Assembly: GCA_034440375.1 (NCBI GenBank)
Contig: JAWXBZ010000101.1
Coordinates: 1 to 21,761 of the forward strand
Length of the DNA stretch: 21,761 nt
Origin: Candidatus Eiseniibacteriota bacterium
GTDB lineage: Bacteria; Eisenbacteria; RBG-16-71-46; JABDJR01; JAWXBZ01
Direction: 5' to 3'
The position numbers were made by a program, and so were the translations under genes. Positions 151 through 15,462 of this stretch are shown here, in pieces. Under the pieces are notes generated by a model that did not search any database, had not been told where the DNA came from, and worked only from the letters and a program-made list of their open reading frames with translations. Position 1 is the stretch's first letter. Each line of letters starts with the position of its first letter.

Positions 151-1761
151 ATGACCCGATCCTCGATTGACCGCCGGGAATTCCTCCGTCGGGCCGGCAT
201 GACTGCGGGTACCCTGGGTATGGCGGGGGGAGTTGCCGCCCTTCCGGGATGTGGCAATACGACGACCGGCCCGCGGCCGCCACTGGCTCCCACGACGCTT
301 ACCGCGGTGGCGCACTCCGCCACCCGCATCGACCTGTCATGGACCGACAACGCCTCCGATGAAACATCGTACGAGGTTGAGCGCCGCCTGGCCTCCGACA
401 CGGAGTTTGCGCCACTCGCCACCCTGACCTCCGATCAGGTCGACTTCACGGATGAATCCGTCGGTGAGCAGGTGATGTACATCTACCGGGTTCGCGCCGT
501 GGCCGAGACACTGGAGTCGGAGTACTCCAATGAAGCCGAGGCAACGACGCCGGCGGCCGGCGCCCCGCTCGCGCCGCTCGGACTGACTGTCGAGTCGGTC
601 ATGCCGAATGGGGCCGTCCTGACCTGGACCGACGCGGCCATCAACGAGAACGGCTACCGCGTGGAGCGGATCGACGACGCCGGCGTCGCCACGATTCTGA
701 CTCTCCCGCGGGGAGCCGCGAGCGCCTTGATTGACGGCCTCGCTGCGGACGACATCGTCCGGGTTCACGTGATCGCCTTCAATGAGATCGGCGACTCCCC
801 GCCATCGGCCGAGGTCCGCTTCCTGACAGGGGCCGTGGCCGAGTTGATCGTCTTGACACCCGTGGAGCCGGGACGACTGCGCGTCAACTGGACCGATCGA
901 ACCTCTGGCCGACTCGGATTCCAGCTCGATCGGGATGCCGGCTCCGGCTTCACGCCGGTCACCACCCTGCCGGCCGCCACCCGGTCATTTGACGACACGA
1001 CGTTTCCGCTCGGTGTCACGGTTACCTATCGCCTGTCGGCGGTCGGTACCGCTTCGATTGCACCACCAATGGCGTCGCTGGTCATTCCCGGCGCGCCCCC
1101 GGCGGCGCCGACGAACGCGGCCGCGAGTCTTGTCTCGACGAGTGGCAGCCGAATCCAAATCGGCTGGCTACACCCGGGCGGTGACGATGTGATCGGTTTC
1201 GCGATCGAGAGGCGTATCGGCACCGGTGCGTTCAGTCAACTTGTCATCCTCAACGACCCCCAAATGACCTCCCACGAGGACGCTCCAAACGCCGACTTCG
1301 TTCCGGTGACTTACCGTGTGATTGCCCAACGAGTCATCAACTGGAACCTGGCCGGCGCATCACCGCCCTCCAACGAAGTCGCCATCACCCCGCGGGCCGT
1401 CTTCTTCTTCACCGGCAACCTGGCGGTTCTCAACACGGTGAACAAGGGGGTGGCCGTCACGATCAACCGGCCGTCGGTCAGCATCGGCGCCGCGTGCAAC
1501 GCCACCACGTCGAGCGTCTACCTGGTGCGCGAAAACGAAACCAGGATTGCGGCCGTCGTGGCTCACTGCACCCATGCCTGCCTGCGGCCCCCGAACTTCA
1601 ACTGGGTCGAGTCAGCAACGCGCTTCCGCTGCGCGCACGGTTCGGAATTCAATCTCGCGGGGCAGGTGCTCCGTGGTCCGGCACCGAGCAATGTGGCAAC
1701 CCTTCAGACCGTTCTTTTCAGCGACCGGGTGGAGTTGATCCCGCCGACGCTGATGCTCTGA
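151..1761 (+). CDS. Tat-exported lipoprotein with about four fibronectin type III repeats and a C-terminal Rieske-like [2Fe-2S] domain
   Basis: N-terminal DRREFL twin-arginine motif, hydrophobic stretch, lipobox LPGC (Cys codon 250-252); repeated FN3 signatures (LSWTDNASDETSYEVER, LTWTDAAINENGYRVER, VNWTDR, YRVRA...SNE); C-terminal CTHAC...CAHGSEF...G.VLRGPAP; GGAG RBS upstream. Confidence 0.85.
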   Translation: MTRSSIDRREFLRRAGMTAGTLGMAGGVAALPGCGNTTTGPRPPLAPTTLTAVAHSATRIDLSWTDNASDETSYEVERRLASDTEFAPLATLTSDQVDFTDESVGEQVMYIYRVRAVAETLESEYSNEAEATTPAAGAPLAPLGLTVESVMPNGAVLTWTDAAINENGYRVERIDDAGVATILTLPRGAASALIDGLAADDIVRVHVIAFNEIGDSPPSAEVRFLTGAVAELIVLTPVEPGRLRVNWTDRTSGRLGFQLDRDAGSGFTPVTTLPAATRSFDDTTFPLGVTVTYRLSAVGTASIAPPMASLVIPGAPPAAPTNAAASLVSTSGSRIQIGWLHPGGDDVIGFAIERRIGTGAFSQLVILNDPQMTSHEDAPNADFVPVTYRVIAQRVINWNLAGASPPSNEVAITPRAVFFFTGNLAVLNTVNKGVAVTINRPSVSIGAACNATTSSVYLVRENETRIAAVVAHCTHACLRPPNFNWVESATRFRCAHGSEFNLAGQVLRGPAPSNVATLQTVLFSDRVELIPPTLML

Positions 1762-1797
1762 ACGGGCTCGTTATCGTGCCAGGACCCGCGCCGCACA

Positions 1798-1818
1798 ACG
1801 GGCGCGGGGAGCGCCCGT
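1798..1818 (+). terminator. GC-rich hairpin downstream of the FN3-Rieske gene (possible terminator or 3' protective stem)
   Basis: ACGGGCGC (1798-1805) pairs with GCGCCCGT (1811-1818) around a 5-nt loop; no U-tract follows on the + strand. Confidence 0.4.
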
Positions 1819-1858
1819 AAAATTGAAGGCCCCGCCCACCTTTCGGTGGACGGGGCCT
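1819..1858 (-). terminator. Rho-independent terminator on the minus strand
   Basis: Minus strand AGGCCCCG-T-CCACC-GAAA-GGTGG-G-CGGGGCCT forms a 14-bp stem with one G.U pair and a GAAA tetraloop, followed by TCAATTTT. Confidence 0.75.
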
Positions 1859-2010
1859 CTCCATCACTTCATCGCTTTTCCGTGATGGAAGCCGCTCGGG
1901 GACGAATGAAAACCTTCTTCGTCCCCTCGCGGACCGCGACCGAGGCAGTGCCTCTTCCCCTGTCGCCGGGAACACCGTCCGGGTTACCAGCCCAACCGCC
2001 GCGTTCCTTG
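1819..2010 (-). ncRNA. Candidate structured small RNA of about 190 nt, family not recognised
   Basis: Consecutive stems at 2007-1969, 1939-1927, 1926-1898 and 1889-1860, then the terminator at 1858-1827; G.U pairs and the GNRA loop favour the minus strand; TATATT -10-like hexamer at 2022-2017; no convincing ORF. Confidence 0.5.
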
Positions 2011-2076
2011 AACCTGAATATAGTGGCCGGAACCCGGCAGAGCCACATTGATCTGGTAAAAACAGAGTAAAAGTTG

Positions 2077-3678
2077 TCACGGACCGCGCTGGGGGCTTGC
2101 TCCCGAATCAATAATCAAATCTCTCTCGCTCGAATCAATCTGTGGTGCCAATCGGGACGCCCCACTGTAAAAACTTTTGCTACCGGCTCCGTCTGGAATC
2201 GTGACCATGGCATCGACCCCCGGGTGGTTCCGGGCCAGCCATTCGATGGCCCGGCTCCCAAGCACGAAGAGCGTCGTGGACAGCGCATCGGCAAGCATGG
2301 CCCCGGGGGCCAGCACGGTTGTGCCGAGGACGCCGGTCACCGGCTCGCCCCGGCGGGGGTCCATGATGTGGCCGTAGGTGATGCCGTCGAGCACGACGAA
2401 TTTCTCATAGCCGCCCGAGGAGGCCACCGCCTCATTCGTGAGGCGCAGGACTGACCGAATGGAATCCGGCTGAGCCGGATCTCGTATGGCCACCGGCCAG
2501 CCACAGGTTCCAGGCTCCGCGGAACCGCGCGCGATGATGTTGCCACCGAGATCGATGAGCGCGTCCTCGATTCCGATGGACTCGACTGCCGCCATCGCAC
2601 GATCCAGCGCGTACCCCTTGGCGATGCCCCCGAAGTCGAGCGCCATGCCGGCCGCGCCATACCGGACGCCGCGCCGTTCCATATCGACAACGAGGCGTTG
2701 CCAACCAACAAGCGACCGAACCGAATCCACCTGGGTCGGTGTCGGGCGATGCCCGGCGCGCCGATAAAATCCCCAGAGGTCCATCAGTGGCTTGACCGTG
2801 ATATCGAACGCACCATCCGACTCCCGCGCCATCGTGAGCGAGGCCGCGAAGACATCCCAGGTTGGTCCACTCAATCTCACCATCGAGTCGACCGCCGTTT
2901 GGTTCAGACGCACCAGCTCGCTCGATGGTCGGTACAGGCTCATCAGGGAATCGACCAGGGCCAGTTCCCGGTAGGCCGTGTCGAAACCGCGTCGGGCGAG
3001 ATGCGAATCCGCAATGCGCAGCCGGACCTCGCAGGTGGTTCCCATGATCAGCCAGAGTCGACGGTGTTCCGTGGCAGGGCCCGCCTGGGCGGTATTCGCC
3101 AGCGCCATACCCGCCAGGACCAGAGCCAGGGTGCCGGTCGTCGCGCGCGCGGATTTTCGCGTCGGTGGGTGCCGCGTGAACCACATGTCCCGGATCGGGA
3201 GCATCACCTGGAGCAGGAAGGCAAACGTGAGCGCCAGGATCGAGACGATTGACAGGGGCGCCAGGCCGGGGGATACATAGCGGATCAACCAGGGCATGGC
3301 CGCGTCCAGCAGCATGGCCGCGAACGAAAAAAGATACAGGGCGATTTTTCTCCGCTCCGAAAGCGCGGTCAGGGCGACGATGTGGGAAAGGATGAACAGG
3401 AGAACTCCCTGGCCGAAGAGATGTGGATGCACGGCGTCGAGAAGTTCGCGGAAGGTTTTCTCAAATGTCATGACGCCGGCATCGGGGAGCATCTCTCCCT
3501 CGTTGCCGTTGTACCAGGCCCGAACACCGGCCGGTGTCATCCCCGTCTTGTCCCAGTAGTTGATCACGCCGACGATCAGGGCCACCACGATCACCATGTT
3601 GAACACCGTGATCAGCACCTTCGTGTGCCGGGGCGCCCCGGAGAGGTTGAACTTTCGTTCGGCGTGGTACTGGGTCAT
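2077..3678 (-). CDS. apbE: Fusion of an N-terminal 4-TM His-containing membrane domain and an ApbE-family FAD:protein FMN transferase
   Basis: C-terminal ~330 aa carry ApbE motifs IMGT, FDITV, DFGGIAKGY, DLGGNI, ASSGGYEK, HIMDPRRG and ADALSTTLFVLG; the first ~165 aa have four hydrophobic helices with HPH and SH motifs; ATGA overlap with the upstream gene. Confidence 0.9.
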   Translation of the reverse strand: MTQYHAERKFNLSGAPRHTKVLITVFNMVIVVALIVGVINYWDKTGMTPAGVRAWYNGNEGEMLPDAGVMTFEKTFRELLDAVHPHLFGQGVLLFILSHIVALTALSERRKIALYLFSFAAMLLDAAMPWLIRYVSPGLAPLSIVSILALTFAFLLQVMLPIRDMWFTRHPPTRKSARATTGTLALVLAGMALANTAQAGPATEHRRLWLIMGTTCEVRLRIADSHLARRGFDTAYRELALVDSLMSLYRPSSELVRLNQTAVDSMVRLSGPTWDVFAASLTMARESDGAFDITVKPLMDLWGFYRRAGHRPTPTQVDSVRSLVGWQRLVVDMERRGVRYGAAGMALDFGGIAKGYALDRAMAAVESIGIEDALIDLGGNIIARGSAEPGTCGWPVAIRDPAQPDSIRSVLRLTNEAVASSGGYEKFVVLDGITYGHIMDPRRGEPVTGVLGTTVLAPGAMLADALSTTLFVLGSRAIEWLARNHPGVDAMVTIPDGAGSKSFYSGASRLAPQIDSSERDLIIDSGASPQRGP

Positions 3679-4247
3679 GGCGCGATCCCATAAAATGTCC
3701 GGAGGATGCCCAGAACTTTCCGGACACCGAAATTGAGTGATCGGACCGAGAGCGTGGCGCCGGCAATGTTGATGATGTCCCGGTTCTGCCGGATCGGGTC
3801 ATCCCAATCCTTGCCGCGATACTGGTTGAGAAAGCGGGTCCGCCGGATGTCCGCACCATGCGACTCGCGATAGACAAGGACCGTGACCCGCGCCACCTCG
3901 AGCTCCGGTGTTGTTCCGACAAGAAAGGTGATCGGACGATACTTGCCGATTTCCTCGGAGACCACGCCGTAGCCGATGAGAGTCGTGTCGCACCAGGCCA
4001 GATGCACGGTGACGGTGTCGTCGGCCACCGGACCACCGAGGGATTTTTCCAGCGCGCCACGCTGCACCGTGGTCATCACGCGGTTTTCGGTGTCGAAACG
4101 GTTCGCCGTTGGAAACGTCTCCGACAGGGCCTCATGCGTCCCCTGGTAAACCGTGACCGGCATGTCCGGAATCGGTTCGGACGCCCGAACCGTTCCCGCC
4201 AACAGAAGCATGAGGCCGGCGAGCCTTGCCGCGTGATGGAACCTCAT
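3675..4247 (-). CDS. Exported FMN-binding domain protein, probable ApbE flavinylation substrate
   Basis: Signal peptide ending VRA; YRESHG..I....FL.QY.GK segment; INIAGATLS, a variant of the [S/T]GA[S/T] flavinylation motif; adjacent to apbE. Confidence 0.85.
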   Translation of the reverse strand: MRFHHAARLAGLMLLLAGTVRASEPIPDMPVTVYQGTHEALSETFPTANRFDTENRVMTTVQRGALEKSLGGPVADDTVTVHLAWCDTTLIGYGVVSEEIGKYRPITFLVGTTPELEVARVTVLVYRESHGADIRRTRFLNQYRGKDWDDPIRQNRDIINIAGATLSVRSLNFGVRKVLGILRTFYGIAP

Positions 4248-5431
4248 CAGAAGTAGGTGGCCACGGAAAAGTGGGCGGAATCGTTGGGGAGGCTGTCCGT
4301 GTCGATGCCGCGACCGGCGCGCCAGCCCCGGGTGACATCCACCTTGAAGGCCGTGTCCTCGGTCGGCCGAAAATTGAGGCCAATCGCCAGGCGCCGATTG
4401 CGATCGCCGGTCTGGTCGGTGTCAAAATCAACCTGGTCGAATCGCGCGACGCCGGTCAGGACCGAGTTCGGCATCGAGCGAACCACGCCGGTCAGGAAAT
4501 GGATGTTCGTCTGGATGTAGAAGCCGTTCTGACCAACGTTGTCCGAACCGTTCAGGGTGACGCCGTCGGGAAGCCCGGTGGAAGCCACTGCGTATTCGCC
4601 GAGGATCTCCAGCGGGCCGCGGTTGAAGCGCGCGTCGAGCGCGGTGATGGTGAGTTTTTCCGAGGATGTTGTTCGATCCGTATAGCGGCCCGTATGGGTC
4701 GAGATGCCGAGATCGAGTCCGAGCATTGGGCTCAGGCCGAGTCGCCCCACGAACGAGCGCGAATTGTTATTGTCGGTCTTCGCGCTGCCGCGACCGCTCC
4801 GGATCCGAACCTCGCCGGTCTGTGCCCCACCGGAAGTGGCGAGAATCCCCTCATCAAACCCGTTGACCAGGTAAGCCTCCCAGCTGAGTATCGACGATTC
4901 ACCCGGCTCGATCGAACCGAAAAAGCCCATCCCCGCCTCGGACAGTGTCGTAGGGATGATCTGCTGATCGACCAGCGGCCGCTCGGTCAGATCGTTGACC
5001 GGTGAATCGTGGGTCAGGTTGAACCGACCGAGCGGCGACAGGAGAACGCCGCCGCGGAACTGGATCCACTCGGCCATCCGAAAATCGATCTGGGCGAATT
5101 CAACCTTGATCTCCCCATCGGTCTCCTCATCGCCGGCAACGGTGCCGCCGTATTCGAACTCGATCTCGCTGGCCACCGAGACGCGGTCGGAAATCTGGCC
5201 GTACAGGAATGGCACGAAGCGATGCGCCGTGAACGTGCTGCTTGTCTCGTTGGCATTCAGTTCGATGTCGATGTAGCCACCAACCCAGAAGTTATCGCCG
5301 CTGCGAAAGAGGAATGGCTTGTCGTAGATGCCACCTGAATTCCCGGGCCGAGGCGCCTCGGTTGTTTCCTGTGCCGCGAGGAGTGTCGGTGTGAAACCCA
5401 GAATCAAGGCAAGTGTCGCTGCGCGAACCAT
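4247..5431 (-). CDS. Outer-membrane beta-barrel/porin-like protein (OprO/OprP-like fold)
   Basis: Signal peptide; alternating amphipathic beta-strands (SEIEFEY, VEFAQIDF, LAIGLNFRP, FKVDV); C-terminal Phe (VATYF); RBS GGAGAGG; TGATG overlap with the downstream gene. Confidence 0.8.
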   Translation of the reverse strand: MVRAATLALILGFTPTLLAAQETTEAPRPGNSGGIYDKPFLFRSGDNFWVGGYIDIELNANETSSTFTAHRFVPFLYGQISDRVSVASEIEFEYGGTVAGDEETDGEIKVEFAQIDFRMAEWIQFRGGVLLSPLGRFNLTHDSPVNDLTERPLVDQQIIPTTLSEAGMGFFGSIEPGESSILSWEAYLVNGFDEGILATSGGAQTGEVRIRSGRGSAKTDNNNSRSFVGRLGLSPMLGLDLGISTHTGRYTDRTTSSEKLTITALDARFNRGPLEILGEYAVASTGLPDGVTLNGSDNVGQNGFYIQTNIHFLTGVVRSMPNSVLTGVARFDQVDFDTDQTGDRNRRLAIGLNFRPTEDTAFKVDVTRGWRAGRGIDTDSLPNDSAHFSVATYF

Positions 5432-5469
5432 GAGAATCCTCTCCCAGAATGTAGATAGGCCTGCCGGAT

Positions 5470-5485
5470 GTTAGCTATATCTAAC
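5470..5485. promoter_or_regulatory. DtxR/SirR/MntR-family-like metal-repressor operator 1
   Basis: Palindrome GTTAG-CTATAT-CTAAC (TTAG-N6-CTAA core) just downstream of the predicted transcription start of the porin operon. Confidence 0.65.
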
Positions 5486-5497
5486 TTTCGGATCGGC

Positions 5498-5526
5498 AGA
5501 CTAACCTCTGACCTCGCAGAGGTCAA
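5498..5526 (-). promoter_or_regulatory. Sigma70-type promoter of the porin-FMN-apbE operon
   Basis: Minus strand TTGACC (5526-5521), 17-nt spacer, TAGTCT (5503-5498). Confidence 0.7.
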
Positions 5527-5527
5527 T

Positions 5528-5543
5528 GTTAAATATGCCTAAC
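5528..5543. promoter_or_regulatory. DtxR/SirR/MntR-family-like operator 2
   Basis: GTTAA-ATATGC-CTAAC, the same 16-bp dyad as 5470-5485 with one arm mismatch, abutting the -35 hexamer. Confidence 0.55.
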
Positions 5544-5617
5544 AACCGTTATCCACGGCAGACCAGCGCGAGAGGCCTGTAAACTGTTTCAGTGCAAGAA
5601 CTCTAACTCGCTATAAA

Positions 5618-6979
5618 TTAACATGATAGGATGGCGATCGCACTGCGGGACGGGATTCGTTCCCCTGGGCGCCAAGAGCCAGGAGCACCTCTTTCGGGAC
5701 CGGCCAGAAGCACTTCGCCACTCGGACAATCAACCTCGGCGGGCCAATCGATCGGAGACGACCCGGTGTTGAAGACAACCAGCAGCTCGCCCGCCGGACC
5801 CTGTCGACGAAAGGCCGCCAGTTCGTTTGAATCGATCGTGACGATTGCCTCCGGCGCTTCGAATCCGGCGATGTGGCGGCGGTAGTCCAACAGATTCCGA
5901 AGCCACTCGCGATACCCGGTCGCTCCCGGCACCTCCCACGCAATCGGTTCCCTTTCGAACAGGCTCGGTCGGTGACGGGCACCGACCTCCTGCCCGTTGT
6001 AGACCAGGAAGGCCCCCCCGGCGAGCGCGGCGAAAAGCGCGGCGCCGCGAGCCGCGGTACCCATTCGATGGCAGGCCCGTGGCTCGTCGTGATTCTCCAC
6101 GAAGCGCATGGGGAGCGATCCTTCCGGGAAGTGGCTGAACCGGCGGGCCACAAGGATCCCCAGGTCGGCCGCGGCCCGCACACCGCGCGTGACCTGGCGC
6201 ATCGCCCGGTACAACTCCCAGTCGTAGCTGGCATGAAACCCGACGCGATGAATGGCCGGGTCATCCCATTCGGCCAGAAGGAAATGGTCGGACTTGATCG
6301 AGCCGAGCCGGGCGGACGCCTCCTGCCAGAACCAGCCGGGAACCATTCCGGCCACGTCACAGCGGTAGCCGTCGATGTCATACCGACGAACCCAGTGCTT
6401 AACCACCTCGATCAGGTGATCGGCGAGGCCCGGCGCGGAAAAATTCCAGTCCACGACATCGGACCAATCGCGAACCCGTCGCGTCGGCAGGCCACGGCGG
6501 TCCCGGGCGAGCCAATCGGGGTGATCCACCGCCATTCGATGGTCAGGCGCTCCGTGGTTCAGCACGCAATCAAGGATGACCCGAAGCCCCGCGGCGTGGG
6601 CGGCCTCGACAAGATGGCCAAGGTCCTCTTCCTCACCATATTCGGGATTGACTGCCAGGTAGTCGCGGATGGCGTAAGGCGATCCAAGCCGCCCCTTGCG
6701 ACCCGACTCCCCGATCGGATGAACCGGCAGCAGCCAGAGGATGTCGGCCCCGAGGGTGGTGATTTCCCCCACTCGTTCGGTGACGTCGGCGAGCGTTCCC
6801 CGGGCACCGAAGGCACGCGGATAGGCGCAATAAATGATCGGTTCCCTGGCCCAGGCAGGCGGCGTGGGCCCCTTACCGAGGGGAGTACCCGGGGGGTCGC
6901 GCCGCAGGCCATGCCGGCTGCCGGCCTCCGGGCGGGGTGCGTGGCCAAGTCGATCATGGTTGACAGGGCGCCGCTTCAT
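5618..6979 (-). CDS. GH13 alpha-amylase-family glycoside hydrolase
   Basis: ILWLLPVHP, GSPYAIRDY, ILDCVLNH, GYRCDVA (nucleophile Asp), LLAEW (acid/base Glu) and VENHDE; RBS GAGGAGG; no obvious signal peptide. Confidence 0.92.
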   Translation of the reverse strand: MKRRPVNHDRLGHAPRPEAGSRHGLRRDPPGTPLGKGPTPPAWAREPIIYCAYPRAFGARGTLADVTERVGEITTLGADILWLLPVHPIGESGRKGRLGSPYAIRDYLAVNPEYGEEEDLGHLVEAAHAAGLRVILDCVLNHGAPDHRMAVDHPDWLARDRRGLPTRRVRDWSDVVDWNFSAPGLADHLIEVVKHWVRRYDIDGYRCDVAGMVPGWFWQEASARLGSIKSDHFLLAEWDDPAIHRVGFHASYDWELYRAMRQVTRGVRAAADLGILVARRFSHFPEGSLPMRFVENHDEPRACHRMGTAARGAALFAALAGGAFLVYNGQEVGARHRPSLFEREPIAWEVPGATGYREWLRNLLDYRRHIAGFEAPEAIVTIDSNELAAFRRQGPAGELLVVFNTGSSPIDWPAEVDCPSGEVLLAGPERGAPGSWRPGERIPSRSAIAILSC

Positions 6980-7079
6980 CCCGTTTCCTCCTCATCCCCT
7001 GTGAGATTGATCGATCCCCGTCTGGAGTTGCGAACCCACCGACGATGACGCGCGCATTGTACACACCGATCAGGAGTCA

Positions 7080-8033
7080 TTGATGAGCCGCGTCCTGCTG
7101 GTCTTCATTGATGGCATCGGGATCGGTCGGCCAGATCCGTCGGTAAACCCGATGGCCGGGCTTGACGTGCTCGGCAACACGCTTCCGCCAGGGTGGGAAC
7201 CGCCGGTCGGGGGTGGACGGCCGGACACGCTCCCGGAATTGCGGCGCGAAGTCCCGTTGCCGGCCGGGGGAATCGCCCGTTCCACCGACGCCTCGCTTGG
7301 CATGCCCGGCCTGCCACAGAGCGCCACCGGCCAGACGACACTGTTCACCGGCATCAACGCGGCGGAGCAGCTGGGGCACCATCTTTACGGCTATCCCGGG
7401 CCGACCCTCCGCCGAATCCTGGTCGAACATTCAATTCTGAAGCGCGCCAGGGCCATGAATCTTCGGGCGGCCTTCCTGAACGCCTACCGCCCCCTGTTTT
7501 TCGAACTGGGCGAGGCCATCTGGGATCGGCCGATGAGCGCTTCCAGCTGGAACAACCGTGCGGCCGGCCTGCCATTCATGACGTTGGACGACGTGCACGG
7601 CCGACGGGCTCTGTACCACGATTTTACGAATCAGGAACCGATCGAGAAGGGTTTTGGCTTGCCAGGGTGGTCGCCGGAAGAGGCGGGCGAAGTCCTCGCC
7701 GAGGCGGCGGGTCAGCACGACCTGGCCATTTACGAGTACTTCCTGACCGACAGGGTCGGGCATACTGGCGATCTGGCCAGGGCCCGATCGGTCGTCGAAC
7801 CTCTTGATCGATTCCTGGTAGCCGCCGTCAAGGCCGCCAACCTCACGGAGCAGACAATCGTTGTGACGAGCGACCATGGAAACCTGGACGACATGAGCCG
7901 GAAGACGCATACGTTGAATCCGGTCCCGACGCTGGTCTGGGGCCCCGATGCCGCCGGGCTTGCGGAGCGACTTCCACGGTTGGAGGACTTTGCCGGGGCA
8001 TTGCTCGACCAGGTCGGGGTCAAGGGCGGATGA
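7080..8033 (+). CDS. Alkaline phosphatase superfamily metalloenzyme (cofactor-independent phosphoglycerate mutase/phosphopentomutase-like)
   Basis: FIDGIG, GLPQSATGQT (catalytic Ser), TDRVGH, TSDHGN and HTLNPVP motifs; AGGAG RBS; the start is either TTG 7080 or ATG 7083. Confidence 0.85.
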   Translation: MMSRVLLVFIDGIGIGRPDPSVNPMAGLDVLGNTLPPGWEPPVGGGRPDTLPELRREVPLPAGGIARSTDASLGMPGLPQSATGQTTLFTGINAAEQLGHHLYGYPGPTLRRILVEHSILKRARAMNLRAAFLNAYRPLFFELGEAIWDRPMSASSWNNRAAGLPFMTLDDVHGRRALYHDFTNQEPIEKGFGLPGWSPEEAGEVLAEAAGQHDLAIYEYFLTDRVGHTGDLARARSVVEPLDRFLVAAVKAANLTEQTIVVTSDHGNLDDMSRKTHTLNPVPTLVWGPDAAGLAERLPRLEDFAGALLDQVGVKGG

Positions 8034-8935
8034 CCCGATCCCTCTTGCTGCCGGCCGGCCTCTTCCTGTTGGCCCTCACCGGATGCGCGGGCTCCGAAGC
8101 GATGACGGCCGCCGGCAGGAGAGGCGGGGGTTCGACCGTGCTGACCTCCGCCCGACACGCCGATACGCCGCCGATTCCGACAAGCCCGATTGCCGTCACG
8201 CTGACGGCATTGAACGACACCGTGGTGGCGCACCAGACCGCCTGGATTGAAGTTCGCATCAAGAACAACGGCGCCGGCGGCCTTGACGTGCCGAATCGGG
8301 CGCGCCACCTGGTTGCAGACTGGCGATTCGAGGATGGGCAGGGGCGTCCGAAGCACGAGTGGCAGGGCCGGGAGGAACTGGAGAAAGCCCCCGTACTCCG
8401 GCTCGGTCCGGGCGAGACGCTGTACGAGGTCATCTCGCTCGAAAGCAGCTTCGGCGTGCTGACGGAGCCGGGAACCATCCGCGCGTGGTGTCGCGTACGC
8501 GGGGAGATGTCGCCGCCGATCGAGGTGAGTCGCGTGGCCACCACTGCTGACGCGCGGCCCTCGATCCTTCGCGACTCGGGCCCGCTCCTCGGCACCCGGG
8601 CCCGGGACAACATCCAGGTCAAGCTCTGGTCCGCGTGTGCCGGGAACGGCAAGGAATGGTTCGACTGCGACGAGGCTCTCTACACGGTGGCCTGGGACCG
8701 GATGCAGGGAGCACCGCTCGAGGCGCAGGCCATCGTCGACACGCTGATCGCCCGGCATCCCACCAGCGGCTGGTGCCGCCCGGCCATCCACGATCTTCTG
8801 GAACGCCTGCCCGAAGCCGCCGGCCGCCGGTGGATCGAGGCCGTCATCGATCGCCACCCCGGCGGCGTGGCCGAACGCTACGCCGACGAAATGCTCCGCC
8901 GCGCCGGATTCGGCCAGCTGCCGGCAGCACGGTAG
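8030..8935 (+). CDS. Hypothetical lipoprotein
   Basis: Lipobox LTGC after a hydrophobic stretch; ATGA overlap with the upstream gene; beta-rich N-terminal half and helical C-terminal half. Confidence 0.75.
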   Translation: MTRSLLLPAGLFLLALTGCAGSEAMTAAGRRGGGSTVLTSARHADTPPIPTSPIAVTLTALNDTVVAHQTAWIEVRIKNNGAGGLDVPNRARHLVADWRFEDGQGRPKHEWQGREELEKAPVLRLGPGETLYEVISLESSFGVLTEPGTIRAWCRVRGEMSPPIEVSRVATTADARPSILRDSGPLLGTRARDNIQVKLWSACAGNGKEWFDCDEALYTVAWDRMQGAPLEAQAIVDTLIARHPTSGWCRPAIHDLLERLPEAAGRRWIEAVIDRHPGGVAERYADEMLRRAGFGQLPAAR

Positions 8936-8958
8936 GTCAACGGGTCACGAGGGACGTG

Positions 8959-9007
8959 TTGCCGGCACCAGGCGGATGACGTACAATTTCATTGTGTTTG
9001 TACGTCA
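8959..9007 (+). promoter_or_regulatory. Toxin-antitoxin promoter with an overlapping autorepression operator
   Basis: TTGCCG (8959-8964), 17-nt spacer, TACAAT (8982-8987); perfect 10-bp inverted repeat TGACGTACAA-N11-TTGTACGTCA (8977-9007) covers the -10. Confidence 0.75.
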
Positions 9008-9024
9008 GAAGTGGAGGAATCGCC

Positions 9025-9261
9025 ATGAATACCAAGCTGACTCTTCGCCTTTCCGAATCCCTCATTCAACGGGCCAAGTCATTGGCCCGACTGCGGGGTA
9101 AATCGGTTTCCCAGCTGGTCAGCGACTATTTCAACGCTTTGGAGGGAGGCGAGCCGGGCGACGCAATGTCACCGAAGGTGCGGGCCCTGCGAGGTGCGCT
9201 TCGAGGCGCAAAGCTTGATCGCCTTGATTATCGAAAGCACCTGGAAAAGAAGTACCGGTGA
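9025..9261 (+). CDS. Ribbon-helix-helix antitoxin (DUF6364-like)
   Basis: MNTKLTLRL...AK..A...GKSVSQLV.DYF pattern; GGAGG RBS before ATG 9025; GTGA overlap with the PIN gene. Confidence 0.85.
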   Translation: MNTKLTLRLSESLIQRAKSLARLRGKSVSQLVSDYFNALEGGEPGDAMSPKVRALRGALRGAKLDRLDYRKHLEKKYR

Positions 9262-9686
9262 AATTTCTCTTCGATGCCGACGTGATTCTCGACCTGCTGC
9301 TCGATCGTCGGCCACACGCGCTGCCCGCCGCGGAACTGCTGTCCCGCGTGGAACGAAGCGAAATCGCCGGTTGCCTGTGCGCCACGGCTGTCACGAACAT
9401 CCACTACCTGGCGCAAAAGGCGGTCGGCGCCACGAAAGCAAGGCAACATGTCCGGATGCTGCTCTCGCTCCTTGAGGTGGCGCCGGTGGGCCGACCAGTT
9501 CTCGAAGATGCCCTGACACTTGGCTTTCGGGACTTTGAGGATGCCGTGACACACGAGTCCGCCCGGCTGGCCGGCGCGGACGGAATCGTCACCCGGAACG
9601 GCCGGGACTATCTTCGGGCCACCATCCCCGTCCATTCCCCGGCTGATGCTATTGCGTTGCTGAATTCCGCCTCGGGCCGGAACTGA
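9258..9686 (+). CDS. PIN-domain (VapC-like) ribonuclease toxin
   Basis: FDADVILD, DFEDA and IVTRN.RDY PIN motifs; 142 aa; directly downstream of the antitoxin. Confidence 0.9.
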   Translation: MKFLFDADVILDLLLDRRPHALPAAELLSRVERSEIAGCLCATAVTNIHYLAQKAVGATKARQHVRMLLSLLEVAPVGRPVLEDALTLGFRDFEDAVTHESARLAGADGIVTRNGRDYLRATIPVHSPADAIALLNSASGRN

Positions 9687-10326
9687 CCGGCACCGGTACG
9701 GCATCCACGACATGATCCAGAAACCAGCGGTGGATCGTCGGCTCGGAGGTCATTTCCGGGTGGAAGGTCATGACCAGGACGCGCCCCTGCCGGGCGGCGA
9801 TCGCCTCGCCATCGTAGCGGAGCGGGACGGAAACATCGGGACCGACTCGTGAAATGCGGGGCGCCCGGATGAAGACGAGGCGCAGCACTTCGCCTGGCGT
9901 CAAGCCCGGCGACTCGGGGGACTTCCCGGTATCCGCCTCCGCCCCCCACGCCGCCGATGGCACCTCTGTCTCGAATGAATCAAGCTGGCGTCCCCAGCCG
10001 TTTCGGACGACGTCAATGTCGATGAGGCCGAGCGACTCCTGCACGGGTCCGATCACCTGGCGGGCCAGCAGAATGAGACCCGCGCAGGTACCCCAGAGCG
10101 CGCCGCCCCGCCCGTGAAAATCGCGGAGCGCTTCCCACAGTCCGTTTTCCTTGAGGATGCGGATGTGAGCGCCACTCTCGCCGCCGGGCAGAATCAGTCC
10201 GTCCAGTCCGTCCAGTTCAGCCGGTGTCCGGACCTCCCGGCCGTCAATGCCGAGGCGCTGGAGGCTGACCAGGTGAGCCTGGTAATCCCCCTGGACCGCC
10301 AGGACGCCAATGCACGACGACGCCAT
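9649..10326 (-). CDS. pdxT: PLP synthase glutaminase subunit
   Basis: GVLAVQG, LPGGES, GTCAGLILLA, RNGWGRQLDSFE, FIRAP and FHPE motifs; follows pdxS. Confidence 0.95.
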   Translation of the reverse strand: MASSCIGVLAVQGDYQAHLVSLQRLGIDGREVRTPAELDGLDGLILPGGESGAHIRILKENGLWEALRDFHGRGGALWGTCAGLILLARQVIGPVQESLGLIDIDVVRNGWGRQLDSFETEVPSAAWGAEADTGKSPESPGLTPGEVLRLVFIRAPRISRVGPDVSVPLRYDGEAIAARQGRVLVMTFHPEMTSEPTIHRWFLDHVVDAVPVPVSSGPRRNSATQ

Positions 10327-10334
10327 GACGACGA

Positions 10335-11216
10335 TTACCAGCCCCGGGTCTGGAGCAGCTCACTTTCCGGCAGCTTCGAGATGTCGAGACCGGGCATGGC
10401 ATCGCCCAGCTCTTCGGAAACCTGGGCGATCTTGGCCGCATCCTGGTAGTGAGTCGTGGCCAGAACGATGGCCCGGGCACGCAGCGCCGGATCATTCGAT
10501 TTGAAGATGCCGCTGCCGACGAAGACCGCCTCGGCACCGAGCTGCATCATGAGGGCGGCGTCGGCCGGTGTGGCCACGCCGCCGGCGGCGAAGTTCGGAA
10601 CGGGAAGCTTGCCGTTTTCGGCCACCCACCGCACGAGTTCGTACGGGGCACCCAGTTCCTTGGCCTCGGCCATCAATTCATCGCTTCGCATGCCATGCAG
10701 TTTGCGCATGTGGGCCTGCACCTCACGCATGTGCCGCACGGCTTCCACGATGTTTCCTGAACCGGCTTCACCCTTGGTGCGGATCATGGCCGCGCCCTCG
10801 CCGATGCGGCGCAGCGCCTCGCCCAGGTTGCGGCAGCCGCAGACGAACGGCGTCTTGAAACCGAACTTGTCGATATGGAAGCGATCATCGGCCGGCGTCA
10901 GGACCTCGCTCTCGTCGATGTAGTCGACACCGAGCGATTCCAGCACCTGGGCCTCAACGAAATGGCCGATGCGGACCTTGGCCATGACCGGAATCGACAC
11001 GGTGGCCATGATCTCCTTGATGACTTTGACGTTTGACATGCGTGCCACACCGCCTTCCTTGCGGATGTCGGCAGGGACACGCTCGAGCGCCATGACGCTG
11101 ACGGCTCCGGCCTCTTCGGCGATACGGGCCTGCTCGGCGTTGGTGACATCCATGATGACGCCACCCTTGAGCATCTCGGCCAGGCCAGTCTTGAGTCTGA
11201 GTGTGTATTCCTTCAT
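10335..11216 (-). CDS. pdxS: PLP synthase lyase subunit
   Basis: [44 protein letters not shown] and [15 protein letters not shown]; start corrected to ATG 11216 with a GAGGAGG RBS. Confidence 0.97.
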
Positions 11217-11226
11217 GTCATCCTCC

Positions 11227-12762
11227 TCAAACCGGTGGAGCACCGGCCACAGCCAGGCGGCGTCCGGAAGCCTTCTGCGCACGCAGGATGTCATCCCGCA
11301 CCGCTTTGGCCAGGCGTCGGACGCCTTCCTGGATCTGATCAACCTTTGAATTGCCGAAGGAAAGGCGGAGCAACCCTTTCTCTCCCGACAGCGAGAAAAC
11401 CCTTCCGGGCGTATAAAGAACGCCGAGCTCGGCGGCATGGGTGAGCAGCTCCGCCGAGTCCATCTGTGCGGGCAGCTTGACCACCAGCGAGAATCCTCCC
11501 GCCGGCTTCGTCCAGTGAACCCCCTCGGGCATTTCCTTCTGGAGGGCTTTCAACAGTGTGTCGCGACGCTTGCGGTACTCGGCGCAGACGAGGGCGGCAT
11601 GGCGCTGCAGCCGCTTCCCCTGGGCAAAGCGGACCATCGCCGCCTGGAAAAGTAGTGACGTGGAGAGATCAGCGGCCTGCTTGGCGGCAGCCAGCCGTTC
11701 GATGACCTGGGCCGGGGCCACGACCCAGCCGAGCCGAATCCCCGGGAAGAGCATCTTGGAAAAGGTACCGGTATAGATGACGTCGCGCCCCTCGGGCAGC
11801 CCCTTGAGCGGCGGGAGGTTATCGCCGTCGTACAGCAGGTCGCCGTCGAAATCGTCCTCGAGGACCGGCACATTGCGGTCGGCGCAGAGCTGAACCAGTC
11901 GGCGGCGGCGTTCCAGCGTCATGCTGACGCCGGTCGGGTTCTGAAACGTCGGCATCGTGTACAGGAACTTCGGACGCTCATGCGCCAGGATGCGCTCGAG
12001 GGCGTCCACATTGAGGCCATGGTCGTCCACCGGAACGGGGATGATGCGCGCCCGGAGCGTGCGGAAGAGATTCAGCGCCCCGTAGTAGGTCGGGTCCTCG
12101 ACCAGGATGGAATCGCCCGGCGCCACCAGTGTGCGCGAGATGAGGTCGATTCCCTGCTGGCTGCCGTTCACGATCAGGATTTCATCCGGCGTGGCCCCCA
12201 CGCCCCGCTCCACCAGGTAGTGGCGCAGAAATTCAATGAACGGACGATGACCCGCGGTGGTGCCGTACATCAGGAGCCTGGAGCCCTCTTCCTTCAGCGC
12301 CCGATTGAGCGCCAGCCGAAACTCGTCGGTTGGAAAGAGCGAGGAGTCGGGAACGCCCCCCGCAAACGAGATCATCCCCTCGCGCTGTGCCCACCGTGTG
12401 ATTTGCGGCGTCAGTGGATCCATGTCCTTCAGCGGATCCTGGGCATACAGCTCCTGCCAGCGGATGGCGCCGGCCGCCGGACGCGGCGAGCGCTGGCTCG
12501 CACCAAGGACGCTGTTCAGCTGGTCTCGGTTGGCCACGAAGGTACCCCGACCCACATGCCGGTACAGGAGGCCGTCGGCCACCAGTTCGTCATAGGCGGT
12601 CGTGATGGTGCCGCGGTTCAAACTCAGGTCAGTAGCCAGGACGCGACTGGCGGGAAGTTCGTCCCCGGGGTTCAGGACGCCTTCGACAATCAACCTCTCC
12701 AGGGCACCCTTGACCTGCTCGTACAATGGATCTCGGGAGTCACGATCTATCAGGATTCTCAT
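11227..12762 (-). CDS. pdxR: MocR/GabR-family PLP-dependent transcriptional regulator (PdxR-like)
   Basis: N-terminal GntR winged helix (PLYEQ...LPASR.LA..L.LNRGT...AY..L...G) plus an aminotransferase-like domain ([22 protein letters not shown]); directly upstream of pdxST; GGAGG RBS before ATG 12762. The symbol is inferred from gene context. Confidence 0.85.
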
Positions 12763-12795
12763 GACGGAAGAACCTCCGGCGCTTGAGTTGACGAA

Positions 12796-12912
12796 CCCAA
12801 TGATATCGTTTGGATAGCCTGGAGGAAGATCCAATTCGCATAATTTGTGGTCCAATTAGTCTAATATTGATCCAATTTATTCCATATTTGTGTATTAATT
12901 GATCATATTGGA
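12796..12912. promoter_or_regulatory. AT-rich promoter region with repeated TCCAAT motifs, probable MocR/PdxR operator array
   Basis: TCCAATT direct repeats at 12830, 12851 and 12871; inverted ATTGGA at 12907; weaker copies CCCAAT at 12796 and TTTGGA at 12809. Confidence 0.65.
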
Positions 12913-12918
12913 CTGATA

Positions 12919-13368
12919 CTAAAAAGGGCGGTCCAAGACCCAGCGCAGGATCTGCCAGCTAAGCCAGATTCCAAGGCCGGCGATCACGATCACGAAGAGG
13001 GCCGCCGAAAGGACCACGATCCGGTCGATGGTGCGGGGTGGTTCGATGCCGTGGGCGTGCCGCTTCAAGAGTTCGAGATTGCGCTGATTCGACTTGAAAA
13101 CGGCGTCTCCGATGTCGCCGAAGAATGGAACGGCGCCGATGGCCAGGTCGAGAAGGATATTGAGGAGCATGCGGCCGATGATGGTGCCCGGCACGCGCTG
13201 CCGACTTGCTGCGACCAGGAGCAGCAGCGAGACCCCCGCGGTGACGAAATCACCCAGCCCCGGCACGAGGCCGATGACGGCATCGAGTCCGAAGCGCCAG
13301 CGAGTGCCGGGGATCCGAAACGCGCTGTCGAGTAGTTGAACCAGTCGCTCGATGTTACGGGTATTCAG
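12919..13368 (-). CDS. DUF4112-family membrane protein, probable CTG start
   Basis: The reading frame extends upstream of GTG 13266 with family-typical LLDSAFRIPGT.WRFGLDA.IGLVPG.GD; later RMLLNILLD..IGAVPFFGDIGD.VFKSN.RN..LL; the most plausible upstream start is CTG 13368-13366, overlapping the preceding TGA. Confidence 0.8.
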   Translation of the reverse strand: MNTRNIERLVQLLDSAFRIPGTRWRFGLDAVIGLVPGLGDFVTAGVSLLLLVAASRQRVPGTIIGRMLLNILLDLAIGAVPFFGDIGDAVFKSNQRNLELLKRHAHGIEPPRTIDRIVVLSAALFVIVIAGLGIWLSWQILRWVLDRPF

Positions 13369-13628
13369 GCCACGCTCTTGGGGGAACGGTTGAACATCAA
13401 ACGGTACAGCGCCAGCAGGATGACGGCGCCGATTACCGACATCAGGAAACCGGCCGCCTCACCCTCCTCGTAGAAGTTGGGCGCCTTGCCGATGATCGTC
13501 CCGACGAACGATCCGGCGATGCCGAGCAGGATGGTGACAATCCAGTTGCCCGGGTCCTTCCCCGGCATGACCAGTTTGGCAACGGCGCCGATTACCAGGC
13601 CGATGATGATCGTGTAAAGGAGCTCCAT
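13365..13628 (-). CDS. GlsB/YeaQ/YmgE-family (transglycosylase-associated) small membrane protein
   Basis: IIIGLVIGAVAKLVMPGKDPG...TILLGIAGS.VG...S.IGA.ILL..YR pattern; GGAG lies 9 nt before ATG 13628 (alternative start 13637). Confidence 0.9.
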   Translation of the reverse strand: MELLYTIIIGLVIGAVAKLVMPGKDPGNWIVTILLGIAGSFVGTIIGKAPNFYEEGEAAGFLMSVIGAVILLALYRLMFNRSPKSVA

Positions 13629-13778
13629 GATACCCATCTCCAAATACCGCCGGAAAGGAACTTTCCGGCGGCGCACGTAAGACATCGTCGGCACTTAGCC
13701 GAAGAACACCCCGAACCAGTAAGCAACTTATCACGCTCCCGAATCGAATCACTCCTTTCTTTTCGATTGCCCCCGGAA

Positions 13779-13791
13779 AATCAACGACTTA
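13779..13791 (+). promoter_or_regulatory. IHF-binding consensus site
   Basis: AATCAACGACTTA is an exact match to WATCAANNNNTTR, 16 nt upstream of the sigma54 motif. Confidence 0.7.
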
Positions 13792-13807
13792 CACATCCAC
13801 CGAAAAT

Positions 13808-13822
13808 TGGCATGACCCATGC
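13808..13822 (+). promoter_or_regulatory. Sigma54 (-24/-12) promoter
   Basis: TGGCATGACCCATGC versus consensus TGGCACGNNNNTTGC: invariant GG and GC at the correct spacing with two mismatches. Confidence 0.7.
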
Positions 13823-13890
13823 AATTGACAGGCCTTGTCTCGTCGCGACGAGGCGCTCCCCCTCAACCAATCCCCCGGGAGTACCAGATC

Positions 13891-14271
13891 ATGTCTCGGT
13901 TCCAGATGTTCCAGGCCACGATCCTGACAGCCACCCTCACCCTGGTTGTGCTCGGAGCGGCCACCATCCACCCGCCCGCGGCAGGTGCCCGACGGGCTCC
14001 AGCCGTTGCCCAGAACGCCGGTACGACCGCTGAAACGCCGGCGATGGCTTCCGCTCGGAAGGCGCCCCCATCCGACTCCGTCCAGCCGAATCTTTTCGGC
14101 GGTTGGTGGAAGAAGTTCAAGAAGATCTTCATGCTGCTCATCGATTTCATCGACGCGCTGATCGACAACACGAAGGAGTTGATCACGGACGCCGGCCCGA
14201 CCGGCTCCTTCCGGCCCGATCGCTGGTCGCCGACACGGCCGAATTTCCCGGATCCGTTTCCCCAGGCGTAA
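13891..14271 (+). CDS. Small secreted protein (126 aa) with a cationic amphipathic helix, function unknown
   Basis: GGGAG RBS; hydrophobic N-terminal signal-like segment; Ala/Pro-rich linker; GGWWKKFKKIFMLLIDFIDALIDNTKELI; Pro-rich tail. Confidence 0.7.
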   Translation: MSRFQMFQATILTATLTLVVLGAATIHPPAAGARRAPAVAQNAGTTAETPAMASARKAPPSDSVQPNLFGGWWKKFKKIFMLLIDFIDALIDNTKELITDAGPTGSFRPDRWSPTRPNFPDPFPQA

Positions 14272-14307
14272 ACCGGGCGACGTCGGGCGGGCCACGACTG
14301 GCGCTGA

Positions 14308-15264
14308 CTACTCCAGGCCCAGTCGTCGGATCTTGAGGCGAAGGCCCGGCGCCGAAAGTCCCAGGTTCGCCGCGGCGCGCGTCTTGTTGCCGGCAGCGGA
14401 CACCAGGGCCCTCACAATCTCACGCCTTTCCAGATCATCCACCTTGTCGCGAAGCGATGAAGTCGGTTCAGACCCCTGCGAGGCCGCGGTCGGCAACGAT
14501 GTCCCGTCCAGTTGCTCGATCACGGCCTCCAGGGTGATTCGCCCGTGTACCGGCGCCAGCCAGGCCACGGTTTCCACCACGCTCCGAAGCTGGCGGATGT
14601 TGCCGGGCCATGGGTGCCCGACAAGACGGGCCATGGCCCGGTGCTCGAACCGAAGCTCGATGCCCCGTACGGCGGCCGAGGCCGCCAGAAACTGATGGGC
14701 CAGGTGCGCGATGCGGTGAGGACGGTCCCGCAGGGCCGGCACGACCAGAGTGACCTGTGCCAACCGGTAGTGAAGATCCGCGCGGAATCGATGCTCGCGC
14801 ACGTCGTCGCCCAGATTCCTGTTGGTGGCCGAAATCACCCGGCCATGGAATTGGCGATCGATCGTTTCACCAAGGCGTCGATACAGGCCACCGTCCAGCA
14901 CCATGAGGAGTTTGGCCTGCGCCACCATGGACAGTTCGCCCACCTCGTTCAGAAACAGCGTGCCACCACTGGCTCGCTCCAGGAGGCCGGCCCGGTCGTT
15001 CAGGGCGCCGGTAAAGGCCCCGCGCCGCGCGCCGAACATCTCTCCCTCGAACAGATCATCCGGCAGGTTGGCGGAATTTACCTCGACGAAGGACTTTCCA
15101 CGGGCCCCGGCATCGGCCCGGAACAGCTCCGCCAAGTGGTTTTTACCGGTACCGGTTTCGCCGGTCAGCAGCACCCGGAGCGGCGTGGCCAGGAGCCGGC
15201 GCACCGAGTGCTCCGGTTCCCCCACCGCGATATCCGTATCCGCGACCAGTCGGGACAATGACAT
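14308..15264 (-). CDS. Sigma54-dependent enhancer-binding protein (AAA+ and Fis-type HTH) without an N-terminal sensory domain
   Basis: GETGTGK (Walker A), EMFG...[14 protein letters not shown] (Walker B variant), [27 protein letters not shown] and [16 protein letters not shown]; the start is uncertain (ATG 15264 chosen). Confidence 0.9.
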
Positions 15265-15404
15265 GCTGACCACCACGGACGTGACTCGGGGAACGTGAGC
15301 GGGTTTGAGTCCGCACGACTCCAGTCTGCCGCCACACATTGCCGAGTCGTCAAGGACAAACCACCGGGGAGGCGTTCCTCAATTGCCCGTCCCCGCGTCC
15401 TGCC

Positions 15405-15413
15405 TGCTAGAAT
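15405..15413 (+). promoter_or_regulatory. Extended -10 promoter element upstream of acs
   Basis: TGC-TAGAAT (TGn-TAnnnT) about 50 nt upstream of the acs start codon. Confidence 0.45.
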
Positions 15414-15462
15414 TCGGCAATTCAAACGATTCGATCCTGATGGCCTCCGTGGAGGATGTTTC

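Follow-up and report, generated by a model that had tools for sequence, protein, structure and literature searches.

A conserved structured non-coding element downstream of an apbE flavinylation operon in two related uncultured bacteria

The hairpin-rich stretch between a Rieske gene and apbE in the window (the whole stretch of DNA analysed here, 21,761 nt of contig JAWXBZ010000101.1 from a Candidatus Eiseniibacteriota bacterium) is, as judged from two sequences, a genuine conserved structured non-coding element that belongs to no described family. The hairpins, their conservation above the neutral level, compensatory changes, a strand bias and the position of the element are all observed. The reading that we prefer, and to which we assign about even chances, is that of a functional, lineage-specific RNA made from the minus strand, which forms the 3' end of a flavinylation operon transcript and probably also exists as a discrete RNA of ~170-200 nt. 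According to this model, the element would form the 3' end of the unk394 - FMN_bind - ApbE transcript, and the discrete ~170-200 nt RNA would be cleaved at, or started next to, an invariant heptamer, TATATTC. Three stem domains, P1, P2 and P3, would hold the invariant blocks CUGGUA (P1) and GGGGAA.AGGCACUGCCUCG (P2 tip) in or near their loops, where an mRNA or a protein partner would recognise them. From the two sequences, we infer transcription, processing, action in trans and the existence of a partner.

The element lies in the 315 nt (1762-2076) that separate two convergent genes. On one side, the plus-strand fn3-Rieske gene (151-1761) encodes a protein with Pfam fn3 and Rieske [2Fe-2S] domains, and a twin-arginine motif can be read at its N-terminus. 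On the other, the flavinylation operon runs on the minus strand in the order unk394 - FMN_bind - ApbE, beginning with a gene for an unknown 394-aa protein (unk394, 5431-4247), followed by the gene of an FMN_bind protein (4247-3675) and ending with a 533-aa apbE ORF (2077-3678; Pfam ApbE, E 4.4e-77; FAD:protein FMN transferase in NCBIfam). The apbE stop codon (2079-2077) is located 54 nt upstream of the hexamer TATATT (2022-2017), and the element extends from 2022 to 1819.

The 533-aa ORF itself combines two parts that occur apart from each other in relatives. The ApbE domain spans residues 182-484, and residues 1-178 match a separate upstream ORF in the closest relative. The sister-family genomes G002, G005 and G007 likewise have separate matches for the two parts, and apbE directly follows the gene that matches the N-terminal part. 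The joined ORF reflects either a genuine fusion or a frameshift in the assembly. Its last ~40 codons (2077-2200) have a low GC content of 0.52-0.58 and do not align to the closest relative.

That relative, G001, is the sole other species representative of the family to which the window genome (G000) belongs. A DNA search of 60 relatives gave a notable match in G001 only (57 nt, 79% identity, E 1.5e-5), which is unique in that genome and lies at the corresponding place, where an fn3-Rieske gene and apbE converge as in the window. Collinearity of the window with the G001 contig extends over at least 300-16443, and the encoded proteins share 40% (Rieske), 51% (ApbE) and 60-79% (others) identity. 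Identity at four-fold sites is 38-41% in 6 of the 8 gene comparisons, with PdxS at 61% and a metalloenzyme gene at 46%; one further comparison gives 25%, from 8 sites only. Composition alone would give ~35%, a hand estimate from third-position base composition, so neutral DNA is close to saturation between the two genomes. In the 131-column alignment of the core, 73 of the 125 ungapped columns are identical, with exact runs of 9, 6 and 13 nt, and the alignment score lies at z 8.7 relative to 1000 random G001 segments. On this alignment, conservation of the core far exceeds the neutral level in the single relative at hand. Together with the compensatory changes described below, this answers, for that one relative, the check on conservation and covariation proposed in the sequence-only reading, an earlier description of this DNA made from its letters. 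When the window was compared by blastn with 20 kb of G001, the matches noticed outside long ORFs were the element and a 22-nt block upstream of the operon, apart from one at 14073-14172 in a stretch that may or may not be coding. Conservation is thus not general among the spacers of this region.

Folding supports the earlier description of an almost continuous run of hairpins, all of whose named motifs were found where it had placed them on the minus strand. The 204 nt of 1819-2022 fold on that strand with -104.7 kcal/mol, compared with -77.5 +/- 4.8 kcal/mol for 200 shuffles that preserve dinucleotide content (z -5.72; 0/200 as good). The plus strand reaches -89.1 kcal/mol (z -5.55). The hairpins of the window are thus well beyond chance, and the z-scores by themselves choose no strand. 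The G001 element folds with -83.9 kcal/mol on the minus strand (z -3.82, 0/200 shuffles as good) and -76.5 kcal/mol on the plus strand (z -2.46, 3/200 as good). Independent partition-function folds of both full RNAs agree on the succession of domains: after a 5' tail come P1, with its CUGGUA loop open, then P2, P3 with a closing helix, and the terminator.

A consensus model of 29 pairs, comprising the outer and inner stems of P1 and P2 as well as P3, was derived from the window and G001 sequences alone. In five of its pairs both sides have changed with pairing kept, and in four a change on one side likewise leaves the pair intact. Of the 58 cells, only 3 are unpaired, all of them in P1 of G001, whereas pairing is complete (100%) in P2 and P3. 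When the 3' partners are slid by 1-3 columns, pairing falls from 94.8% to 40-64% and the number of pairs changed on both sides to 0-2, a control that leans towards the model because the model came from the same two sequences. Partner shuffles reached the observed covariation values in 8 of 500 cases. RNAalifold yields a consensus energy of -36.45 kcal/mol on the minus strand (z -4.44, 0/200 column shuffles as good, structure conservation index 0.63) and of -28.55 on the plus strand (z -3.98, index 0.56).

The first domain, P1 (1969-2007, minus strand), is an irregular hairpin seen in the single-sequence folds. Its outer stem GGAACGC (2007-2001) / GUGUUCC (GTGTTCC in the DNA, 1975-1969) encloses an inner stem UUGGG (1995-1991) / CCCGG (1983-1979), topped by a 7-nt loop that reads CUGGUAA in the window and CUGGUAC in G001, with CUGGUA invariant. 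The block GGGCTGGTA is the exact 9-nt run common to both sequences; one P1 pair has changed on both sides and one on one side. The tip of P1 (1984-1995, minus strand), a 5-bp stem with a 7-nt loop that carries U at loop position 2 and A at position 6, has the shape of a tRNA anticodon arm (GGU). This likeness may be a coincidence, since ARAGORN finds no tRNA or tmRNA gene in 1600-2300.

P2 (1936-1966, minus strand) is built from an outer helix GCGAC (1966-1962) / GUCGC (1940-1936) and an inner helix GGGG/CCUC, and it presents the invariant block GGGGAA.AGGCACUGCCUCG (1960-1941). All 18 cells of its nine pairs are paired, both sides having changed in two pairs and a single side in one, and its exact runs in common with G001 are the 6-nt GGGGAA and the 13-nt AGGCACTGCCTCG. 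At the tip of P2, a small AGGC/GCCU hairpin could form in place of the GGGG/CCUC pairing. A mini-hairpin proposed earlier, TCGCG (1939-1935) / CGCGA (1931-1927), competes with the covarying GCGAC/GUCGC helix; its two sequences are present, but it does not appear in the minimum-free-energy fold and has no counterpart in G001.

The P3 domain (1890-1935, minus strand) contains a hairpin of GGGGACGAA (1926-1918) and TTCGTCCCC (1906-1898), also given as GGGGACGAA/UUCGUCCCC (1926-1898). Here, too, 18/18 cells of nine pairs are paired, and two pairs have changed on both sides and two on one side. P3 is closed by a further helix, CCGC/GCGG plus GG/CU, which occurs in both single-sequence folds with unrelated sequence in the window and G001; a MAFFT alignment gave no common register for it.

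The remaining upstream-of-terminator hairpin, P4 (1860-1889, minus strand), pairs TCCATCAC (1889-1882) with GTGATGGA (1867-1860) (stem UCCAUCAC/GUGAUGGA) around a 14-nt purine-rich loop. It had been named in the sequence-only reading and is indeed part of the window fold, but it is specific to the window and absent from G001, where the alignment has a gap. The long-range pairings once suggested to close a multibranch junction fare worse: read against G001, CTCGG/CCGAG is down to 3 pairs and GGAAG/CTTCC to 4 unchanged pairs, and the junction is not kept.

The element ends in a terminator-like hairpin (1819-1857, minus strand; the hairpin itself at 1857-1828) with a 13-bp stem and a GAAA loop, followed by TTCAATTTT (the tract is also given as UUCAAUUUU). 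In the window the T-tract is interrupted, and the pattern scanner did not list the hairpin, which failed its T-tract rule. In G001, the element is directly followed by a 13-pair stem that carries a GAAA loop and, on the minus strand, seven T's; this is the single terminator-like site listed in L116 4600-5400. The combination of a GC-rich hairpin and a T-tract that marks an intrinsic terminator is thus canonical in G001 and carries an interrupted tract in the window. Judged by its sequence and position, the window hairpin probably ends both the RNA and the operon transcript, since it is the sole terminator-like hairpin read downstream of apbE and stands between convergent genes. A terminator scan found no site between the apbE stop and the element in the window or in G001. 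With no terminator-like site intervening, operon transcripts should run through the element to the shared terminator, and this read-through would make the element at least a 3' UTR.

How a discrete RNA might be released is less clear-cut. The heptamer TATATTC (2016-2022, minus strand) is identical in the window and G001 and could act as a -10-like box or else as a single-stranded site of processing immediately 5' of P1. Nineteen nucleotides upstream of TATATT, a conserved block AAYGTGGC (2042-2049, minus strand) aligns with G001, and a T-rich stretch lies beyond it; the block could belong to the promoter context or to the 3' UTR. RNase E prefers AU-rich single strands, and the AU-rich single strand directly 5' of the stable P1 stem would be compatible with an RNase E site. 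An RNase E/G gene was found in G001 and not in G000, which is 93.7% complete, so that absences in G000 are weak.

A stand-alone sRNA gene with its own promoter is a possible, albeit rather unlikely, alternative. TATATT would then act as the -10 box and AAYGTGGC, ~19 nt upstream, would serve an alternative sigma factor or activator, with transcription starting at ~2010 and ending at the terminator. TATATTC is indeed invariant and rare, with 36 occurrences on both strands of this 3.96-Mb GC-rich genome. Partial conservation reaches a further ~45 nt upstream, spaced alike in both genomes, a pattern that suits a promoter as well as, or better than, a cleavage site. The G001 element also begins ~185 nt beyond the apbE stop once a scaffold gap and its duplicated flanks are discounted, a distance that suits an independent gene. 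However, a TTGAnn -35 at 16-18 nt upstream of TATATT is absent in both genomes and promoter scanners reported 0 sites, although such a -35 is typical here: it precedes 11 of 34 tRNA genes, compared with 9 of 5000 random segments, and is also found before the flavinylation operon. This absence favours read-through or processing over a housekeeping promoter. The TATATT box pointed out in the sequence-only reading is therefore present and conserved in G001, as a putative promoter -10 that lacks the genome-typical -35. The combination GTGGC-N18-20-TATATT has one other genome site, inside a coding region, and thus does not represent a recurring promoter type. A sequencing run of unspecified kind (X1) contained one identical 194-nt contig over 1675-1868 and nothing else.

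Between apbE and the element, contig C28 of G001 has a run of 99 N's (L116 5037-5135) with copies of an identical 55-nt sequence on both sides. This looks like a scaffolding artefact that may hide sequence, and it makes the true length of the G001 spacer uncertain. Upstream of the flavinylation operon, the window and G001 share an identical 22-nt block (window 5500-5545, minus strand; L116 9100-9145). Its final bases are TTGAC, and a spacing of 17 nt separates these from TAGTCT in the window and TAGTGT in G001; from its sequence, this arrangement looks like the operon promoter with an adjoining conserved operator or UP-like sequence.

The processed 3' end that we prefer has counterparts among known bacterial RNAs. 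The element shares the position of 3' UTR-derived sRNAs such as MicL, UhpU, FimR2 and autoregulatory 3' UTR sRNAs (PMC7398697, PMC12704781, PMC9723502, bioRxiv 10.1101/341578): it comes directly after an operon's final stop codon, on the strand of the operon and unseparated from it by a terminator, and ends in the operon terminator. A single-stranded AU-rich site ahead of a stable stem is a further likeness. Unlike those sRNAs, the element belongs to an uncultured lineage, is known here from sequence alone, and comes from two genomes in neither of which Hfq was found. Among the matches listed from the literature on such sRNAs, 'ApbE' appears in none, as far as the retrieved text goes. With a length of ~190 nt and three or four structured domains, the element exceeds most 3' UTR-derived sRNAs in both size and structure.

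Among possible protein partners, CsrA was found in G001 and not in G000. Contiguous complementarity to four neighbouring start regions is limited to stretches of 8-11 nt, complementary 10-mers occur genome-wide at 2.48 per kb of single strand, and none of the neighbouring start regions stands out as a target above this background. The junction between P1 and P2 can pair within the first 10 codons of the Rieske mRNA (codons 4-10), over 10 and 8 nt in the two genomes. This is not above background; the sequences on the RNA side and on the mRNA side differ between the genomes and the complementarity stays. The loop-proximal blocks are invariant on covarying stems, which points to a specific RNA or protein partner.

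The same blocks bear on the idea of a purely cis-acting 3' UTR, in which the hairpins and the shared terminator would protect the operon mRNA from 3' exonucleases and insulate the convergent genes, with no function in trans. Such a role would agree with the terminator-like hairpin between convergent genes, with the presence of several stable hairpins and with the apparent dispensability of P4, which G001 lacks. We nevertheless consider it unlikely. Stability requires stems rather than sequence, yet the 9-, 6- and 13-nt loop-proximal runs are identical while the stems covary. In addition, order-level relatives carry the apbE operon without the element: at eight loci around their apbE homologues, a search with our covariance model R1, run with filters off, gave 11.4 bits at best.

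Several lines of evidence favour the minus strand as the functional one. Its fold energy is lower in both genomes (-104.7 vs -89.1 and -83.9 vs -76.5), its consensus energy and structure conservation index are better, and the T-tract and position of the terminator agree with this orientation. Minus-strand-specific G.U pairs, as previously noted for the window, are borne out, with four in each sequence within the conserved model, all of which become A.C on the plus strand. That the plus strand is functional instead, as the 3' UTR of the Rieske gene, or that the conserved blocks are DNA-level protein-binding sites, appears very improbable. The plus strand does fold significantly (z -5.55; consensus z -3.98), and the element has been seen only beside the fn3-Rieske gene, as this reading would have it. 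Against it, plus-strand energies are weaker in both genomes, in G001 to the point that 3/200 shuffles do as well (z -2.46), and the four G.U pairs per sequence turn into A.C mismatches. A terminator-like hairpin also lies between the Rieske stop and the conserved core in both genomes, so plus-strand transcripts would mostly end before reaching the core. DNA-binding sites would not be expected to show compensatory changes.

Chance hairpins or decaying sequence such as a gene relic are barely credible, given that dinucleotide-preserving shuffles never fold as well, that conservation is far above the near-saturated neutral level and that compensatory changes are present, even though GC-rich DNA folds readily and 2046-2017 resembles coding DNA for an alpha/beta hydrolase His motif. 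The likeness at the DNA level is real: minus-strand 2017-2046, including TATATT, matches alpha/beta-hydrolase coding DNA in G000 (contig C18 6955-6986, 28/32 nt, E 5.7e-4), and both read ..PGSGHYI.., the window frame being the apbE frame after the apbE stop. A hydrolase relic was rejected, as G001 lacks the reading frame: a stop codon falls in it. A small protein-coding gene was also rejected, because the conserved core is interrupted by indels of 2, 1 and 3 nt; tblastx of the window against G001 gave only fragments of 13-17 aa at the element, on both strands.

Comparison with known RNA families revealed no counterpart, in line with the earlier failure to place the element. Across the whole window, none of the 4227 models of Rfam 15 matched at its gathering score. 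In E-value mode, the 10 matches listed for 1700-2150 all scored at or below 18.1 bits, compared with thresholds of 34-82, the best E-value being 0.08 (Atu_C7). Atu_C7 (RF02501; 17.1 bits vs gathering 45), BjrC80 (RF02354; 17.6 vs 80) and che1 (RF02935; 18.1 vs 54.1) resemble the element in being GC-rich, with several hairpins and a terminator end, and they align partially, mainly to the terminator and P3. They differ from it in that only one of the three matches falls on the minus strand, the other two being on the plus strand, and the conserved blocks of the element are unmatched.

The element shares with REP-like repeats the form of a GC-rich hairpin cluster between convergent genes. In contrast to such repeats, it is single-copy. 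A DNA search of its own 3.96-Mb assembly returned otherwise short matches with E 5.7e-4 or weaker, and R1 finds one real match each in G000 and G001, the second-best in G000 scoring 18.6 bits (E 0.17). A REP-like or dispersed palindromic repeat, which had been raised as a possible refutation, is thereby ruled out in both genomes. Since the element has no Rfam match, is not a repeat and is conserved with compensatory changes, its description as a stand-alone ncRNA or structured 3' element on the minus strand, outside the known families, holds; the multibranch junction and two of the hairpins included in that description are not conserved.

The element is known from two related uncultured bacteria only and is, as far as the searched sequences go, lineage-specific. 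The 20-nt block of P2, with at most one mismatch allowed, occurs in 2 of 206 phylum genomes, namely G000 and G001. R1 scores these two members at 136 and 138 bits and everything else at 23 bits or below; over 151 phylum genomes, it gave, other than the two members, 5 matches at 20-23 bits with poor alignments. In metagenome contigs, the P2-block pattern was found at 3 loci, one identical to the window and two unrelated by reading, and viral contigs and plasmid records gave no match. The element was found only where the fn3-Rieske gene is its neighbour. A search of genome contigs with the Rieske protein gave 79 distant loci, matching mainly the N-terminal, fn3-containing part with 27-50% identity in the best segment, and no full-length match to the fn3-Rieske protein was found in the sister family.

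A more specific scenario, which we regard as quite doubtful, is that a new regulatory RNA family arose when the fn3-Rieske gene and the flavinylation operon came to adjoin each other, is cut from the apbE 3' UTR, and, through the invariant P2 tip or the P1-P2 junction, couples production of the flavin-transfer machinery to that of the twin-arginine-exported Rieske protein next door or to other redox genes. If the preferred reading of a minus-strand 3' UTR RNA is true, a structured regulatory RNA would have been recognised from its sequence in a family that has not been cultured, within a small phylum represented by 206 species in the collection searched, and RNA-level control would be tied to a gene cluster for extracytoplasmic flavinylation and Rieske redox chemistry. 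The general picture would be unchanged, lineage-restricted sRNAs and 3' UTR elements being common. The element is a good seed for an RNA-family model, and new genomes can be screened with R1, because it clearly separates the members from the rest.

Two further differences and likenesses were seen elsewhere along the collinear region. The alpha-amylase family gene upstream of the flavinylation operon (5618-6979, minus strand) has no counterpart at the syntenic place in G001, and the corresponding region measures ~2.0 kb in the window vs ~0.67 kb in G001. Between the GntR-aminotransferase and sigma-54 activator genes, ~1.4 kb of the window (12856-14307) hold short overlapping ORFs only, and a 100-nt segment within this stretch (14073-14172) is 78% identical to G001.
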